The notes under the pieces are model-generated. The model did no database searches. It saw only the letters and a program-made list of their open reading frames with translations, and was not told the DNA's origin. The position numbers were made by a program, and so were the translations under genes. A stretch of 43,003 nt of DNA from IMG/VR virus record IMGVR_UViG_641522624_000003; one strand, given 5' to 3'. The DNA comes from a virus (lineage: Duplodnaviria > Heunggongvirae > Uroviricota > Caudoviricetes). Positions 4,856 to 43,003 of this stretch are shown here, piece by piece (positions within the stretch are counted from its first letter, which is position 1; each line of letters starts with the position of its first letter).

Positions 4856-5047
4856 TTAAAATCCTGCCGGGATTTCGTTATTATCCTGGTGAATAACTTT
4901 ATCGACCGGATAACAGTTGCCTGGAATTTTCTGTTCGGTTGCTGCTGCCATACATTCCTGCTTTGTTCTGTGAACACTGACTGCAATATCAACTGGCCCT
5001 CCGGAAACAAGAAAAACCGTCAGAATAAGTGCAAATACTGGATTCAT
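4856..5047 (-). CDS. ydfD: YdfD-like small lysis/membrane protein (63 aa from internal Met MNPVF)
   Basis: ORF track 4856..5101 (-); hydrophobic N-terminus MNPVFALILTVFLVSGG; lies directly downstream of dicB as in the Qin dicB operon. Confidence 0.55.
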   Translation of the reverse strand: MNPVFALILTVFLVSGGPVDIAVSVHRTKQECMAAATEQKIPGNCYPVDKVIHQDNNEIPAGF

Positions 5048-5232
5048 TGTGCACATCCTTTTGGCATCAGACGTAAACGGGCCAGCATTGAAACAATGCA
5101 TACTTTATTTAATAACTCCCGTTCGTGTTTTCTTTTGTTAATGGCATCTTCAGTAAATACAGGATTACTGATAGTGACACCAATTTCAAAACAACCTTCA
5201 GACGTATTAACGTTTGGTAATAACGTTTTCAT
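5044..5232 (-). CDS. dicB: Cell-division inhibitor DicB
   Basis: 62-aa product MKTLLPNVNTSEGCFEIGVTISNPVFTEDAINKRK.ERELLNK.CIVSMLARLRLMPKGCAQ, recalled as near-identical to E. coli DicB; start at the internal Met of track ORF 5044..5337. Confidence 0.8.
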   Translation of the reverse strand: MKTLLPNVNTSEGCFEIGVTISNPVFTEDAINKRKHERELLNKVCIVSMLARLRLMPKGCAQ

Positions 5233-5401: not shown

Positions 5402-5459
5402 AAAAAGGGCGGCAGAGCAGTCACGGAGTAAAACTGATACCGCCAAACGTCACCAGAAA
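5402..5459 (-). ncRNA. dicF: DicF small regulatory RNA
   Basis: Minus-strand sequence TTTCTGGTGACGTTTGGCGGTATCAGTTTTACTCCGTGACTGCTCTGCCGCCCTTTTT matches my memory of DicF including its terminal hairpin and U-tail; located between ydfC and dicB. Confidence 0.8.
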
Positions 5460-6047: not shown

Positions 6048-6176
6048 TCAGCCGTTAGATTTTGCCGAGCTGGAAAGCGCCTGTTTAAACTCACTGAAGC
6101 TGAGAGCTTCTTCGCCTTCGGCAAGGTCTTCGAAGTATTCTTCGTAAGCCTTTTCCATGATTGCGTCGAAATCCAT
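6048..6176 (-). CDS. ydfB: YdfB-like small acidic protein (42 aa)
   Basis: Hand-translated minus-strand ORF MDFDAIMEKAYEEYFEDLAEGEEALSFSEFKQALSSSAKSNG; below the 60-aa cutoff of the ORF track; start codon abuts the ydfA stop. Confidence 0.55.
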   Translation of the reverse strand: MDFDAIMEKAYEEYFEDLAEGEEALSFSEFKQALSSSAKSNG

Positions 6177-12822: not shown

Positions 12823-13033
12823 TTTTATATTGGCGAGGTGACGTGAGTTAAGTAGAATTGCTGCGGGTGCTTGAGGCTATCTGCCTCGGGCATGAACACC
12901 AACGGCAGATAGAGAAAAGCCCCAGTTAACATTACGCGTCCTGCAAGACGTTTAACATTAATCTGAGGCCCAATCTATGCTTCACAAACGTAGGTTAGCC
13001 TCTTACGTGCCGAAAGGCAAGGAGAAGCAGGCT

Positions 13034-13189
13034 ATGAAGCAGCAAAAGGCGATGTTAATCGCCCTGATCGTCATCTGTTTAACCGTCATAGTGACGGCAC
13101 TGGTAACGAGGAAAGACCTCTGCGAGGTACGAATCCGAACCGGCCAGACGGAGGTCGCTGTCTTCACAGCTTACGAACCTGAGGAGTAA
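13034..13189 (+). CDS. hok: Hok/Gef-family type I toxin (51 aa)
   Basis: Product MKQQKAMLIALIVICLTVIVTALVTRKDLCEVRIRTGQTEVAVFTAYEPEE carries the Hok/Gef signature (TM helix, conserved C, EVAAF-like motif), recalled as HokD/RelF-like; an in-frame upstream ATG at 12977 gives the 70-aa track ORF. Confidence 0.8.
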   Translation: MKQQKAMLIALIVICLTVIVTALVTRKDLCEVRIRTGQTEVAVFTAYEPEE

Positions 13190-16318: not shown

Positions 16319-16394
16319 GGCCCTTTAGCTCAGTGGTGAGAGCGAGCGACTCATAATCGCCAGGTCGCTGGTTCAAATCCAGCAAGGGCCACCA
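16319..16394 (+). tRNA. tRNA with anticodon CAU (Met or lysidine-dependent Ile2)
   Basis: 76-nt cloverleaf: acceptor GGCCCTT/AAGGGCC, D stem GCTC/GAGC, anticodon loop CTCATAA, T-loop GCTGG-TTCAAAT-CCAGC, 3' ACCA. Confidence 0.7.
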
Positions 16395-16395
16395 G

Positions 16396-16472
16396 CCGCC
16401 ACTAGCTCATCAGGAAAGAGCGTCAACCCTTTAAGTTGAGTGTGCGAGGTTCGAGTCCCCGGTGGCGGTCCA
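16396..16472 (+). tRNA. tRNA with atypical anticodon loop CCTTTAA (C at position 33); nominal anticodon UUU, Arg(UCU)-like backbone; isotype uncertain
   Basis: 77-nt cloverleaf: acceptor CCGCCAC/GTGGCGG, D stem GCTC/GAGC, anticodon stem TCAAC/GTTGA, T-loop CGAGG-TTCGAGT-CCCCG, 3' TCCA. Confidence 0.5.
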
Positions 16473-16474
16473 GT

Positions 16475-16550
<76 letters not shown>

Positions 16551-16553
16551 TAT

Positions 16554-16628
<75 letters not shown>

Positions 16629-37617: not shown

Positions 37618-37627
37618 TGGAGTGGAT

Positions 37628-40165
37628 ATGGCAGCAGTAAAAATCTCAGGTGTGCTGAAAGATGGTGCGGGAAAACCAATACAGAACTGCACTATTCAAC
37701 TGAAGGCAAAGCGTAACAGCACCACGGTACTGGTGAACACGGTGGCTTCTGAAAATCCGGATGAAGCCGGACGTTACAGCATGGATGTTGAGTATGGCCA
37801 GTACAGCGTCACCCTGCTGGTTGAAGGTTTTCCGCCTTCACATGCCGGGACCATTACCGTCTATGAAGGTTCCAGACCAGGTACGCTGAATGATTTTCTC
37901 GGTGCCATGACGGAAGATGATGTCATGCCGGAGGCATTGCGTCGTTTTGAGGCAATGGTGGAAGAAGCGGCACGCAACGCCGAAGCCGCCTCTCAGAGCG
38001 CAGCGGCGGCAAAGAAATCCGAAACTGCAGCGGCATCATCGAAGAACGCGGCGAAAACCTCAGAAACGAATGCAGCTAACAGCGCACAGGCGGCAGCGAC
38101 CTCACAGACTGCATCGGCAAACTCCGCGACAGCAGCCAAAAAATCAGAAACCAACGCGAAAAACAGCGAGACAGCCGCAAAGACGAGCGAAACCAACGCA
38201 AAGTCCAGCCAGACGGCAGCGAAGACCAGCGAAACGAATGCCAAAGCCAGTGAAACTGCGGCAAAAAACAGCCAGGTTGCAGCAGCCCAAAGCGAGAGCG
38301 CGGCAGCCGGTTCTGCGACTTCAGCAGCCGGATCAGCAACTGCTGCGGCTAACAGCCAGAAAGCTGCGAAGACGAGTGAAACTAACGCAAAGTCCAGCCA
38401 GACGGCAGCGAAGACCAGCGAAACGAATGCCAAAGCCAGTGAAACTGCGGCGAAAAACAGTCAGGATGCTGCAGCCCAAAGCGAGAGTGCCGCAGCTGGT
38501 TCTGCAAGTGCGGCGGCTTCTTCTGCCACTGCATCAGCCAACAGTCAAAAAGCTGCAAAAACCAGTGAAACCAACGCAAAGGCGAGCGAGACTGCGGCGG
38601 CTAACTCGGCGAAAGCATCCGCTGCAAGCCAGACGGCTGCAAAAGCAAGTGAAGACGCAGCCAGAGAGTATGCAAGCCAGGCTGCGGAGCCGTATAAACA
38701 AGTTTTGCAGCCGCTTCCCGATGTGTGGATACCGTTTAACGATTCACTGGATATGATTACGGGCTTTTCGCCATCATATAAAAAGATTGTTATTGGCGAC
38801 GACGAAATAACGATGCCTGGTGACAAGGTTGTTAAGTTTAAACGCGCATCGAAAGCAACCTATATTAATAAATCTGGTGTACTGACAGAGGCTGCCATTG
38901 ACGAGCCGCGATTTGAACGTGATGGCCTGCTTATTGAGGGGCAAAGAACTAATCTTCTGCTTAATTCAACAAATCCATCTAAATGGAATAAGTCAGGCAA
39001 TCTGGAACTCACAGAAATATCCACGGATTCTTTTAATTTTACTTATGGGAGATTTACTGTAAAAGATACTCTTATTGATCAGACAAGTGCGATTAATATC
39101 GTAACGGTTTCTGGCAGTAAAGGATTTGATGTCACAGGTGATGAAAAATATGTGACCATTTCATGCCGTGTCAGAAGTGATGTTGAAAATATAAGGTGTC
39201 GTTTAAGATTTGAACATCATGATGGTTCTACTTACACTTTTTTGGGAGATGCTTACCTCAATTTATCAACACTTGTAATTGATAAGACTGGTGGTGCAGC
39301 AAATCGTATTATTGCAAAGGCTGTAAAAGATGAGGCTACTGGTTGGATTTTCTATCAGGCTACAATTAATGCACTAGATACAGAGAGCATGATTGGTGCG
39401 ATGGTTCAATATGCTCCAGTAAAAGGTTCAGGCACAGCATCTGGAGACTATCTGGATATCGCAACTCCACAAGTGGAAGGTGGATCAAGTGCTTCGTCAT
39501 TTATTGTAACTGATATAATTGCAAGCACTCGCGCAAGCGATATGGTGACAGTCCCAATCAAGAATAACCTTTATAATCTTCCTTTTACAGTTCTTTGTGA
39601 GGTACATAAGAACTGGTATAAAACGCCAAATGCAGCACCGCGTGTTTTTGATACCGGCGGTCATCAAACCGGAGCGGCTATTATTCTTGGCTTCGGTCGT
39701 TCAACAGATTACGACGGATTTCCTTATTGCGATATAGGTTTGGCTAACAGACGGGTAAACGAAAACGCATCGCTTGAAAAAATGGTTATGGGGATGCGTG
39801 TAAAGTCAGATCAGTCTACGTGCTCAGTAAGTAACGGGCGTATATCCAGCGAAAAGAAAGCCACATGGTCCTATATTCAGAACACCGCAATTATCCGTAT
39901 TGGAGGCCAGACTACAGCCGGGTTGCGTCATTTATTTGGTCATGTCAGGAATTTCAGAATATGGCACAAGGCATTGACTGATGCTCAGGTGGGTGGATTT
40001 GCCCCTATATTTCCAGACACCTGTTATCACTTAACCCATTACTGGCCTGCTGCCGCAGATATTCCCGTGGCGAGCGATAACCCAGTGCACTATGCGGATG
40101 CCATTCGTTATAATGCTCGAACGCCTCTGCAAGGTTCTTTGCTGCCGTTAACCCGTCTGGTTTAG
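37628..40165 (+). CDS. stf: Side tail fibre protein Stf, 3' end interrupted by IS2 (reads through into IS2 sequence)
   Basis: Track ORF 37622..40165; N-terminus [27 protein letters not shown]... matches recalled lambda Stf. From 39994 the frame continues into IS2 for 53 codons; removing IS2 and one target-duplication copy restores an ORF ending ...AQVGESI-stop. Confidence 0.75.
38177..38554 (+). repeat. In-frame 189-bp tandem duplication inside stf (two 63-aa Ala/Ser/Thr-rich units)
   Basis: Near-identical units [32 protein letters not shown](V/D)[13 protein letters not shown] offset by exactly 189 nt. Confidence 0.7.
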
Positions 40166-40910
40166 GCATGATACTGATGTAGTCACGCTTTATCGTTTTC
40201 ACGAAGCTCTCTGCTATGCCGTTACTCTCCGGACTCCGCACCGCCGTGTTCTTCGGTTCAAGCCCCAACATCCGGGCAAACTGCCGTGTTTCATTAGCCC
40301 GGTAGCATGAACCATTATCCGTCAGCCACTCTACTGGAGACGCCGGAAGCTCGTTGCCGAAGCGGCGTTCCACCGCTCCCAGCATGACGTCCTGTACTGT
40401 TTCACTGTCGAAGCCGCCCGTAGTGACTGCCCAGTGCAGTGCCTCACGGTCACAGCAGTCCAGCGCGAACGTGACTCGCAGTTTTTCTCCGTTATCACAG
40501 CGGAACTCGAACCCGTCAGAGCACCATCGTTGATTGCTTTCTTTCACGGCCACTTTGCCAGTATGTGCCCGTTTCGATGGCGGTACAGCGGTTTTTCGCT
40601 CAAGCAACAGCGCATTCTGGCGCATGATCCGGTAAACACGTTTGGCATTGATCGCAGGCATACCATCAAGTTCGGCCTGTCTGCGAAGCAGCGCCCATAC
40701 CCGACGATAACCATACGTGGGCAGCTCTCCGATAACATGGTGTATACGGAGAAGCACATCCGTATCATCTGAGTGACGGCTGCGGCGACCATCTTTCCAG
40801 TCATCGGTTCGTCTGAGAATTACGTGCAACTGCGCACGCGACACCCGGAGACAACGGCTGACTAAGCTTACTCCCCATCCCCGGGCAATAAGGGCGCGTG
40901 CGCTATCCAC
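40005..40910 (-). CDS. insD: IS2 transposase OrfB (InsD), DDE integrase-like
   Basis: 301-aa track ORF matching recalled IS2 InsD; overlaps insC as expected for frameshift-fused IS3-family transposases. Confidence 0.85.
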
Positions 40911-41233
40911 TTTTTTGCACGCCCGTATTCAACGGCTTCTTTAAGGAGTTCATTTTCCATCGTTTTTTTGCCGAGCAGGCGCTGGAGTTCTTTAATCTGC
41001 TTCATGGCAGCAGCAAGTTCAGAGGCAGGAACGACCTGCTCTCCTGCGGCCACAGCAGTAAGACTTCCCTCCTGGTATTGCTTGCGCCAGAGAAATAACT
41101 GGCTGGCTGCCACACCGTGTTGCCGGGCAACAAGGGAGACCGTCATTCCCGGTTCAAAACTCTGCTGAACAATAGCGATCTTTTCCTGTGTAGTACGCCG
41201 TCTGCGTTTCTCCGGTCCTAAGACATCAATCAT
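40868..41233 (-). CDS. insC: IS2 transposase OrfA (InsC)
   Basis: Start at [24 protein letters not shown] within track ORF 40868..41278; HTH protein matching recalled IS2 InsC. Confidence 0.85.
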
Positions 41234-41341
41234 CTGCTCTCCAATGACTAGTCTAAAAACTAGTATTAAGACTATCACTTATTTAAGTGATATTGGTTGT
41301 CTGGAGATTCAGGGGGCCAGTCTAGTGGGGGAGTCAATCTA

Positions 41342-41623
41342 ATGAAAGATTTAACACTCAAATTTGCCGACAGGGCCGACTTTTCGGCCTTTATGGAGAG
41401 TGCCGGCTATTATGATGACGAGTCGATGCAGGATGATATTCTTATTGACGTGATAGGTAACGTGTACAAAGAAACCGGAGAACTTACCGAAGATGGCGAG
41501 CCGGTATGTGTTAAGGAAGACGGATATTTTGTAAACGTGCGCATCATTAATGATGCAAAAAAATCGTCAATATTCGATGAATACGTGGTTGCTGTTGAGC
41601 ATCAACTTCGTGGCTGGATGTGA
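41342..41623 (+). CDS. Hypothetical small acidic protein (93 aa) downstream of stf
   Basis: Start MKDLTLKF within track ORF 41297..41623; its ATG overlaps the reconstructed pre-insertion stf stop (TAATG); no similarity to lambda Tfa that I can recognise. Confidence 0.45.
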   Translation: MKDLTLKFADRADFSAFMESAGYYDDESMQDDILIDVIGNVYKETGELTEDGEPVCVKEDGYFVNVRIINDAKKSSIFDEYVVAVEHQLRGWM

Positions 41624-41632
41624 GGAAGAAAA

Positions 41633-42673
41633 ATGGCTACATCGACAGTAATTCCTGAAGACATCAAAACGCTAAAATCCGACGTTAGCAAATTAAAAAA
41701 CGATCAAGGAAGCTACGCAACAAAATCATATGTAGACAATAAAACAACATGGAATAGTTATTGCAATGTAATCTATGATCAAAAGACATTGCCGACCACT
41801 GGAACTATATTTAGCGGTAAGATTCACTTGTCAAATAAGACAGGAGAAACCGAAAACGCTTATAGTGAGATGTACACTAGAAAAAATATTGACGGTACAA
41901 AAGATACAATGACAAGGATTGTCACACACAATGGAACAAAAGGTATCTTTTGGGATTTTAGCGATCTTTACGGTGGAACATTAATTTTTCCAGGCAGTGA
42001 TGGTTACCTTAAGATGGGGAACTGTCTCATGTCGTATGGTGTGCGGGGAAGTAACGCGCTTATTAAGTTTGACTGCACAGACACATTACAAATCAAATAT
42101 GCCAATCATGGGTCAACCATGACAATCAACACACAGGGAACCGCTCATTCTGGCGCTACTACTAGTTTGTGGGGTAACTCTACCCGTCCGGTTGTATATG
42201 AAGTTGGTGCTGATGGTGGCGCTTATATGTTCTATGCGCAGAAAAATACCGATAACACCTATATGTTAAGCGTTAATGGTGCATGTCATGCCACCGCATT
42301 TAACCAGCATTCCGACCGGGATCTGAAAGACAACATTCAGGTGATCGATAATGCAACCGACCGCATCCGTAAAATGAACGGCTATACATACACGCTTAAA
42401 GAAAACGGTATGCCCTATGCTGGTGTCATTGCACAGGAAGCTCTGGAAGCAATCCCAGAAGTTGTAGGTTCCGCAATGAAATATCAGGACGGTGCAAGCG
42501 GATCGGAAGGTGAAGAAGGTGAACGTTATTACACAGTAGATTATTCTGGTGTTACTGGCTTGCTTGTTCAGGTAGCCAGAGAGTCAGACGACAGAATAAC
42601 AGCACTGGAAGAAGAAAACGCAGAATTAAGACAAAGATTATCTGCAATTGAGGCGGCGCTTGCGTCTAAATAA
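41633..42673 (+). CDS. Tail fibre/spike-like protein with C-terminal intramolecular chaperone (peptidase S74-like) domain
   Basis: 346-aa ORF, low GC; C-terminal segment (...NQHSDRDLKDNIQVIDNATDRIRKMNGYTYTLKENG...YAGVIAQEALEAIPEVV...YYTVDYSGVTGLLVQ...ALEEENAELRQRL) has the features of auto-cleaving fibre chaperone domains. Confidence 0.6.
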   Translation: MATSTVIPEDIKTLKSDVSKLKNDQGSYATKSYVDNKTTWNSYCNVIYDQKTLPTTGTIFSGKIHLSNKTGETENAYSEMYTRKNIDGTKDTMTRIVTHNGTKGIFWDFSDLYGGTLIFPGSDGYLKMGNCLMSYGVRGSNALIKFDCTDTLQIKYANHGSTMTINTQGTAHSGATTSLWGNSTRPVVYEVGADGGAYMFYAQKNTDNTYMLSVNGACHATAFNQHSDRDLKDNIQVIDNATDRIRKMNGYTYTLKENGMPYAGVIAQEALEAIPEVVGSAMKYQDGASGSEGEEGERYYTVDYSGVTGLLVQVARESDDRITALEEENAELRQRLSAIEAALASK

Positions 42674-42700
42674 TATCAAGGGGCCGAGCGCCCCGTTTTA

Positions 42701-43003
42701 TTGGGTAGGATGAAAATGGATATAACACCTTTCCTTCATGCGCTTTGTGCTGTGGCTGCGCAGCTACTGATTGGTCTTTTTACCGGGAACTGGGCTTACG
42801 GGGCGATAGCCGGTTGTACGTTCTTCATTGCGCGTGAACACACCCAGGCAGAATATCGCTGGATTGAAATGTTTGGGCATGGCAAGAGGATTAACATGCC
42901 GTGGTGGGGCGGTTTTGATCCGCGCGTGTGGGATGTGGCAAGCCTGATGGATTTTGCTGTGCCGGTGGTGGCGTGTCTGCTGATCTGGATGTTGATCCGT
43001 TAA
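42701..43003 (+). CDS. Hypothetical integral membrane protein (about 3 TM helices); true start probably at ATG 42710 or 42716
   Basis: Track ORF with stop at the window end; hydrophobic segments LHALCAVAAQLLIGLF, WAYGAIAGCTFFIA, FAVPVVACLLIWMLI. Confidence 0.45.
   Translation: MGRMKMDITPFLHALCAVAAQLLIGLFTGNWAYGAIAGCTFFIAREHTQAEYRWIEMFGHGKRINMPWWGGFDPRVWDVASLMDFAVPVVACLLIWMLIR

Follow-up and report, generated by a model that had tools for sequence, protein, structure and literature searches.

What follows the side tail fibre gene stf in a lambdoid prophage in which the assembly gene expected there from lambda, tfa, is missing? The question is raised by positions 41342-43003 of IMGVR_UViG_641522624_000003, a 43,003-nt stretch of DNA from a virus of the Caudoviricetes (hereafter the window, to which all open reading frame (ORF) coordinates refer and whose final three bases are the last stop codon). 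As the first-pass annotation had described, three ORFs lie there on the plus strand: one for a 93-aa acidic protein (41342-41623), one for a 346-aa protein (41633-42673) and one for a small membrane protein (42701 or 42716 to 43003). All three are members of conserved protein families (PHROG 1361, 4563 and 1443, respectively) and are thus real genes, not chance ORFs. We consider it reasonably probable that this interval holds the outer portion of a side (lateral) tail fibre module with several subunits, together with a recruited membrane gene, and that the module has been split by the insertion sequence IS2. The arrangement as such is common and has been sequenced before; here it is broken by IS2. 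Literature searches by accession, locus tag or PHROG number returned no paper on these genes, and the Eligo lambda-STF paper and the LF82 paper (PMC9928086) make no mention of them.

The three ORFs had been taken to follow stf directly, which overlooked a 1331-bp IS2 element (IS3 family) at 39994-41324 on the minus strand. The element has terminal inverted repeats and two transposase ORFs on the minus strand, orfA (~40868-41233; HTH_Tnp_1, 2e-19) and orfB (40005-40910; rve, 9e-20, plus rve_3, the DDE integrase core), and is flanked by a GTGGG target-site duplication (left copy 39989-39993, right copy 41325-41329). Three complete Escherichia coli genomes carry the empty site, 100% identical and exactly 1336 bp shorter. 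Because the exact junction is missing from all 5,426 complete E. coli genomes searched, the insertion is recent and private to this strain. Read-through into IS2 gives Stf 56 IS-encoded residues and costs it its last three; once the element and one copy of the repeat are excised in silico, Stf again has 794 aa and ends in …DAQVGESI, the same end as in Tritos, ESCO3 and the RefSeq homologues. The displaced final stf codons (…G-E-S-I-stop) lie at 41330-41342 on the plus strand, and their TAA (41340-41342) overlaps the next ATG as TAATG. A 1.3 kb antisense element now parts the three downstream genes from the late transcript, with the ribosome-binding site of the 93-aa gene kept beside it and no promoter-like site found that could serve as an outward promoter from IS2. 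We speculate that the insertion, by changing the Stf C-terminus and probably lowering expression of the three downstream genes, likely impairs the side fibre. In about 15 other strains an independent IS3-family element lies inside the gene for the 346-aa protein and in two it lies near the stf end, E. coli SCU-105 (locus L003 6593-8969) being among the strains with independent insertions in the fibre module; these repeated hits suggest recurrent inactivation of the module in prophages.

The interrupted stf occupies 37628-39993 on the plus strand and retains the first 791 of 794 codons, counted from a GTG at 37622, the RefSeq start of the identical gene being the ATG at 37628. It comes after J and lom, the neighbouring gene encoding Lom, and PHROG 1419 covers Stf residues 4-791. 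Behind an N-terminal tail anchor (Pfam phage_tail_N PF08400, 1e-66) come a shaft of Ala-rich repeats and a distal part of low GC that begins near residue 371. Within the distal part, residues ~406-653 match the NCBIfam model GTA_spike_fiber (NF048003; 5e-16, 59.8 bits against a cut-off of 36) and PDB entry 6tb9, the glycan-binding head-spike fibre Rcc01080 of the Rhodobacter capsulatus gene transfer agent (GTA; E 1e-4), and the final ~50 residues match Laminin_G_3 below threshold (17.5 bits against a cut-off of 27.6). Among relatives, variability is greatest at Stf residues 501-650 and at residues 46-147 of the 346-aa protein, two segments whose pattern would fit two receptor-binding regions. 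The shaft (38147-38599) consists of 189-bp and 42-bp tandem repeats encoding Ala-rich stretches of the S-E-T-N-A-K type, and its AT skew of up to 0.73 gives rise to many spurious overlapping ORFs.

The 93-aa protein (41342-41623, plus strand; PHROG 1361, 2e-46) is cytoplasmic and, as first described, acidic, with a pI of 4.2 and 21 Asp and Glu against 9 Lys and Arg residues. Its family is small (227 clusters; 52 representatives among 1.84 billion proteins), and a diverse alignment displays the conserved motifs M-K/R-D…L-K-F, D-x-I-G, G-Y-F-V-N-x-R-I and P-x-R-x-W-A. Neither the single sequence nor the family profile matched anything in Pfam, NCBIfam, PADLOC or the PDB, and a Pfam search with 17 family members gave zero matches. 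Homology to Tfa was ruled out, an hhalign comparison of the family profile with lambda Tfa giving a probability of 0.09%. The gene always follows a fibre gene whose product ends in …FGH-x-RN-x-RIWHK-x-L-T-D-x-Q, usually with a stop/start overlap, in lambdoid, Nonagvirus, Drexlerviridae (T1-like) and Comamonas loci and regardless of whether a gene for a 346-aa-type protein comes next. The stf stop overlaps the start of the small gene in Tritos, ESCO3, phage 21, PhiR11_1, JenP1 and tonn, as does the TAATG here after excision of IS2. In Comamonas prophages, the order is the N-part of a fibre, a LamG-tailed fibre, a 95- or 188-aa protein and the membrane gene, and this 95/188-aa protein aligns over its full length with the 93-aa family profile (probability 75%, E 2.5e-5). 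Since the family occurs in phage 21 and in Comamonas prophages that lack the 346-aa-type protein, the small protein appears to go with the fibre C-terminus and not with the protein encoded after it. A structural role or one in assembly is suggested by its translational coupling to stf, and from position and coupling only we infer a fibre-specific assembly factor or adaptor that stands in Tfa's place.

The 346-aa protein (41633-42673, plus strand), here called the tip, is well supported as a receptor-binding fibre or tip protein with a chaperone domain of the self-cleaving type, in agreement with the initial description of its C-terminus. Pfam Peptidase_S74 (PF13884) covers residues 227-278 (E 6e-14, 52.5 bits against a cut-off of 22), and the segment H-S227-D-R-D-L-K aligns with S-S-D-R-R-I-K of the bacteriophage S16 gp37 chaperone (PDB 6f45), in keeping with the SDR-x-x-K motif, so that self-release of the chaperone is predicted at Ser227. 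Cleavage there would yield a mature part of residues 1-226 (41633-42310) and release the intramolecular chaperone with its coiled coil (42311-42673, stop codon included). The mature part begins with a constant peptide of about 16 to 20 residues (41633-41692), followed by a short coiled coil, the variable region 46-147 and a region of fibre repeats; Pfam detected no phage_tail_N or other tail-anchor domain in it. The variable middle is distantly related to segments of P2 gpH, T5-like and P1 fibres and also to T4 gp34 repeats, and it is thus a true fibre segment, found elsewhere within fibres made of a single chain. In the T5-like phages compared, similarity is confined to the ~60 residues at the end of the mature tip (41-45% identity).

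The tip gene occupies a slot that holds different alleles. By gap measurement at 78 lambdoid loci, the slot contained a 346-aa allele at ~36, a 233/234-aa allele at ~31 and a 227-aa allele at ~8, and was empty at 2; an earlier count of empty slots at 42/80 lambdoid loci was ruled out, as those gaps hold 227/234-aa alleles that BLAST had missed. Every allele starts with M-[AV]-T-[SK]-T-V-I-P-x-D-I-x-T-L-K and ends in an S74-type domain (27.2 bits in the 234-aa allele, above the Pfam threshold), with unrelated middles between, and the N-terminal peptide is restricted to lambdoid, Nonagvirus and T1-like phages, always in this position. The variable part of the window's tip is 55% or 91% identical to its counterpart, according to the relative compared. 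Given that the slot alleles vary and that the same genes recur at 74-95% identity in unrelated virulent phages, the tip is best regarded as an exchangeable, horizontally moving element. A short GC hairpin with a T-run (42680-42704, plus strand) lies between the tip and membrane genes with the 346-aa allele only; as a functional terminator it was rejected, because its fold is not above that of shuffled sequences (z -0.8) and it is missing with the 227/234-aa alleles, making it weak at best.

Comparison with relatives delimits the unit that travels. The four-gene order stf, 93-aa gene, tip gene and membrane gene is intact in Tritos, 2G7b, HannyBb and PhiR63_1, and Tritos, with the module intact, makes plaques (PMC9928086). 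The lambdoid phage 21 carries a homologous stf distal domain, a 92-aa protein 54% identical to the 93-aa protein whose gene overlaps the stf stop, and a membrane gene at 89%, with no tip gene. The virulent Nonagvirus phages ESCO3 and JenP1 carry the fibre, a 92/93-aa protein and a 351-aa S74 protein, and the virulent T1-like phage tonn carries the fibre, a 92-aa protein and a 224-aa tip, all three lacking the membrane gene. Piecewise identities show each part of this trio to be homologous across the three lineages, siphovirus groups unrelated to one another, some of which are strictly virulent and form plaques on K-12. A block made up of Stf residues 651-794, the 93-aa protein and tip residues 1-45 is ~95% conserved across Tritos, ESCO3 and the window, and the membrane gene is constant whatever the tip allele. 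The co-travelling unit therefore appears to comprise the stf C-terminal domain, the 93-aa gene and the tip gene.

These boundaries bear on how tfa was lost. The first-pass annotation had read all three ORFs as AT-rich and as a single acquired receptor-binding cassette in place of tfa, with possible exclusion or immunity functions for the acidic and membrane proteins. Relative to the other ORFs, GC is low in two of them only, the 93-aa ORF (0.429, z -1.9) and the 346-aa ORF (0.418, z -2.1), that of the membrane ORF being 0.52 (z +0.2), and low GC already sets in within stf, near residue 371 (residues 371-791: GC 0.41, GC3 0.32). Eleven window segments fall below the mean minus 1.5 standard deviations in GC, and low-GC patches are therefore nothing special in this mosaic prophage. 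The replacement of tfa itself stood up. The window has no tfa, and just downstream of the membrane gene relatives preserve a fossil of the tfa 3′ end, the final ~36-39 codons, 87-89% identical to lambda Tfa residues 156-194 (Tritos, L001 7705-7812; SCU-105, L003 9325-9441; and PhiR49_1; coordinates at L127, ~5029-5145 and 6065-6151, are also listed). This fossil indicates that a past recombination really did swap the original stf tip and tfa in this lineage; it is lost from the IS-free twin of the window (locus L002). What did not hold is replacement by one three-ORF cassette: the receptor-binding tip is indeed exchangeable and mobile, but the membrane gene is no part of the travelling unit, and nothing supports an exclusion or immunity role for the acidic protein.

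The membrane protein had been described as a 100-aa polytopic protein at the window edge. It does have three helices and its stop codon does lie at the edge, but its start is most likely the ATG at 42716 and not the TTG at 42701, as the family alignment, the PHROG profile and RefSeq agree, which makes it a 95-aa inner-membrane protein (42716-43003, plus strand; PHROG 1443). The structural model is confident (pLDDT 91.8), with helices at residues 4-23, 26-52 and 74-94, and its fold matches are generic. The family numbers 568 clusters by single-sequence search and 2,091 by profile search, its members are ~95-105 aa long and all named hypothetical, and they contain no Pfam domain; the protein itself, searched as a single sequence and as a profile, gave nothing significant in Pfam, NCBIfam, PADLOC or the PDB. 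The family shares an invariant polar core (H8, R40-E41-(H42), Q44-A-E-Y-R-W-I50, P62-W-W-G-G-F-D68, W72 and D79), with the polar motif reading R-E-H-T-Q-A-E-Y-R-W-I … P-W-W-G-G-F-D. Because five of the six Lys and Arg residues lie within segment 40-73, this motif probably faces the cytoplasm. The tail-assembly-interference systems Tai/Ati were considered and ruled out by their other genomic position and by lack of similarity, comparisons of phi80 TaiEcA and AtiEcA with the membrane protein giving negative bit scores.

In prophage copies, the membrane gene starts 0-20 nt past the final host-recognition gene or its accessory, and in other phages it tightly abuts or overlaps the fibre gene. It follows the tip gene or the small-protein gene in lambdoid prophages, a P2-type fibre gene with its own S74 domain at one locus (L114), and fibre genes in Chelativorans and Desulfovibrio; in beta-proteobacterial prophages, it is preceded by a J-like gene and a small ORF or by the gene for a DUF4376 protein, and in Aeromonas salmonicida it overlaps a P2/HP1-type fibre gene. 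A search for a promoter of its own found no promoter-like sites above chance, and it is not listed among the Tritos genes expressed in the LF82 lysogen (PMC9928086). As virulent phages with the same fibre trio do without the gene, its product appears dispensable for building the fibre. The family also has chromosomal members outside phages. Five Aeromonas species share the order Pirin, membrane-family gene, RIO1 (loci L008, L133, L135, L137 and L139), Leclercia and Silvania carry a copy beside a porin gene, and sphingomonads (loci L190 and L192) carry one beside housekeeping genes, whose products we take, judging from sequence, to be DNA ligase, aspartate oxidase and PNPase. This chromosomal synteny points to a cellular function. 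Near the copy at the Aeromonas locus L008 are two lipid A acyltransferase genes. In Comamonas-type prophages (L007 8300-10033; L093 6973-8036), overlapping small ORFs follow the membrane gene, including one for a membrane protein and one for an Rz-like protein that has an anchor at its N-terminus and a coiled coil; none of these ORFs has a Pfam match, and the run may be a lysis cassette.

Taking these observations together, we propose that before the insertion a single operon encoded Stf, the 93-aa protein, the tip protein and the membrane protein. The 93-aa protein would be made in step with Stf and be dedicated to folding or assembling the Stf distal domain, possibly as an adaptor, so that an unrelated protein would perform the role that Tfa has in lambda. 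The tip would trimerise with the help of its C-terminal chaperone, which would then cut itself off at Ser227, and would dock by its constant N-terminal peptide on the assembly of distal Stf and 93-aa protein. Docking there is the most economical model, as the peptide is constant across phages with unrelated tail tips, leaving the Stf distal region and the 93-aa protein as the sole shared candidate partners. The resulting fibre would have two subunits and two variable regions that bind glycans, comparable to the branched LtfA/LtfB fibre of T5-like phages. The membrane protein would remain outside the fibre, probably be made late and act on the host inner membrane, most likely by excluding further phage genomes or by modulating the envelope or lysis. 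Our best guess for it, and the weakest step of the proposal, is a factor of the inner membrane that is expressed late and affects phage entry or the envelope.

Several points weigh against this proposal. Binding of the tip to Stf or to the 93-aa protein is deduced from sequence comparison only, and in PhiR11_1 the tip N-terminus is still ~90% identical although identity has dropped to 56% for the Stf C-terminus and to 33% for the 93-aa protein, so that the conservation of the peptide could in part be that of a recombination linker. Co-variation was set aside as proof of an interaction among Stf, the 93-aa protein and the tip, being inseparable from their physical linkage. The model of the 93-aa protein (pLDDT 65.6, one of five models; topology β-α-β4-α) is too weak to build on and its fold matches are generic, which leaves the chaperone idea to position and coupling. 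The polar effect of IS2 is assumed. As for the membrane protein, the generic fold, the lack of a match to a defence family, its place outside the lysogen expression list and the probably cytoplasmic motif all speak against the function suggested for it.

Other accounts of the module were weighed against the same data. That tfa gave way to a single acquired, AT-rich receptor-binding cassette made up of the three ORFs, with the acidic and membrane proteins devoted to exclusion or immunity, seems unlikely: two of the ORFs are indeed low in GC, the tip allele is exchangeable and the tfa 3′ fossil persists in Tritos, SCU-105 and PhiR49_1, but the GC of the membrane ORF is average and the ORF remains constant from one tip allele to the next, the low-GC block begins within stf, the gene of the acidic protein is coupled to stf and is also found where there is no tip, virulent phages have the trio without the membrane gene, PADLOC gave no match for any of the three proteins, and the data already indicate different phylogenies for the three genes. 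Somewhat less remote, though still doubtful, is the idea that the 93-aa protein is a virion hinge or adaptor like T4 gp35, joining Stf to the tip, and not a transient chaperone. Its gene sits exactly between the two fibre genes, coupled to the first, and the ~95% conserved block runs from the end of Stf through it into the tip; however, simple linkage can explain that conservation, phage 21 and Comamonas have the protein but no tip, and it has no structural similarity to known adaptors. The tip might instead be an independent second fibre attached to the tail itself, at J, the collar or the baseplate, and physically unrelated to Stf, since it has its own start codon and its own chaperone and many phages do have several independent fibres. 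We consider this improbable, as the tip has no tail-anchor domain and its N-terminal peptide is common to phages with unrelated tail tips, always after the same pair of fibre and small protein. A two-subunit fibre assembled with the help of the 93-aa protein remains the reading we prefer.

Two further possibilities concern the membrane gene and the state of the module. The membrane protein has three helices in ~95 aa, and in Comamonas-type prophages its gene directly precedes small membrane and Rz-like ORFs. On these grounds it could be a lysis protein of the holin or antiholin type and not an exclusion or envelope factor; this we rate as very unlikely, because in lambdoid and P2-like phages the lysis cassette lies elsewhere and the gene still follows the fibre genes, and because invariant polar motifs, a C-terminus without a charged tail and chromosomal copies beside housekeeping genes are atypical for holins. 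It is conceivable, though on balance unlikely, that the module here is a decaying, non-functional prophage remnant. IS2 breaks the stf end and cuts the downstream genes from the late transcript, and other strains carry independent insertions in the same module. On the other side, apart from the insertion all four ORFs are intact and match IS-free copies at 100% identity, the 93-aa gene keeps its ribosome-binding site, and lambda-type phages are viable when their side fibres are missing. We retain the reading of a fibre module of a common type with a recruited membrane gene, interrupted by IS2.

At the left end of the window, an intact tRNA-Ser(CGA) gene (892-981) adjoins an integrase gene (1034-2059), and inspection of the sequence beyond position 43003 in the IS-free twin locus located attR, a 31-bp repeat of the tRNA 3′ end, ~411 bp past the right edge of the window (L002 9349-9379), followed by yodB and zinT. 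The lambdoid prophage is integrated at tRNA-Ser(CGA), and the membrane gene is its final gene before attR. The window was clipped exactly at the membrane-gene stop, like many IMG/VR prophage predictions (e.g. loci L011, L017 and L020); its right edge is a product of clipping by gene and does not mark where the prophage ends. In Tritos, a PinR-like serine recombinase gene lies just downstream of the module (L001 7913-8503); an invertase-driven fibre switch was rejected for the prophage studied here, which ends ~400 bp past the membrane gene without a recombinase and whose tip gene is co-oriented with stf. In another record (IMGVR_UViG_2724679539_000001; L097/L099), after the tip and membrane genes come a membrane gene and a tip chaperone in reverse orientation, an inverted duplication that may represent two prophage ends placed tail to tail or an assembly artefact. 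Elsewhere in the prophage, Rfam matched a sok antitoxin RNA (hok/sok type), the DicF small RNA and a cluster of four tRNA genes (12865-13039, 5407-5458 and 16319-16625, listed jointly for the three).

Side tail fibres govern the first, glycan-level step of host range. If the constant peptide is a docking handle, the slot could be a natural plug-in site at which lambdoid, T1-like and Nonagvirus phages exchange short tips, which would be of use in engineering host range. The membrane protein leaves more to explain, representing a widespread, strongly conserved and wholly unannotated family that is tied to host-recognition genes in temperate phages only. Its invariant motif is enzyme-like, and its gene is placed after the host-recognition genes in lambda-like, P2-like, HP1-like and J-only temperate phages. 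As a tentative joint proposal, less secure than the module itself, the family would be a new phage-borne inner-membrane factor of entry or the envelope, and the 93-aa protein would represent an assembly class, unrelated to Tfa, that enables plug-in S74 tips. The residual interest of the locus lies in that Tfa-unrelated small protein and, above all, in the fibre-linked membrane protein.

Compared with known systems, the insertion sequence is an ordinary IS2, matching the IS3 family in its orfA/orfB pair, its HTH and DDE core, its imperfect inverted repeats and its 5-bp duplication, with nothing unusual about it and only the insertion site specific to the strain. The module resembles lambda Stf/Tfa in its phage_tail_N anchor, its place after J and lom and a small gene coupled to the fibre 3′ end. 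By contrast with lambda, the distal half of Stf is unrelated, the small protein is no Tfa homologue, tip and membrane genes are added, and only a 3′ fossil of tfa survives, in relatives only. The Stf distal region contains a domain homologous to the GTA head-spike fibre (Rcc01080, PDB 6tb9), here on a tail side fibre and not on a capsid spike, with a LamG-like tail after it. The tip shares with the endosialidase-type chaperones (K1F endosialidase, T5 pb1 and S16 gp37) the Ser-Asp-Arg…Lys at the start of the domain and the C-terminal coiled coil, but here the chaperone stands on a very short, separately encoded tip protein and its cleavage is predicted. Small membrane-associated exclusion proteins encoded in or near tail or receptor-binding genes include HK97 gp15, phi80/N15 Cor, T5 Llp and T4 Imm. 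The membrane protein resembles them as a small membrane protein encoded beside receptor-binding genes, a likeness based in part on reference 15 of PMC11364771; it differs from them in having no sequence relationship, in the chromosomal non-phage members of its family, in its probably cytoplasmic motif and in not being listed as expressed in the LF82 lysogen.

The closest precedent is found in lateral fibres built from several proteins. In the T5-like phages DT57C and DT571/2, a branched lateral fibre consists of two separately encoded proteins, LtfA and LtfB (PMC4728585, PMC10713586), LtfB being attached through LtfA in DT57C (PMC10713586), and according to the BASEL paper the lateral fibres of small siphoviruses can be made of one, two or more proteins (10.1101/2021.03.08.434280). 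The module studied here differs from LtfA/LtfB in that sequence similarity to T5-like fibres is confined to the end of the mature tip, a 93-aa protein is encoded between the two genes, Stf has no S74 domain, the second protein is short (226 residues when mature) and its attachment is deduced. In both cases, however, the first protein is anchored to the tail and a second one without an anchor is encoded beside it, an order conserved here in synteny; the loci are highly variable and directed at glycans, and C-terminal chaperone domains belong to that class of fibres.

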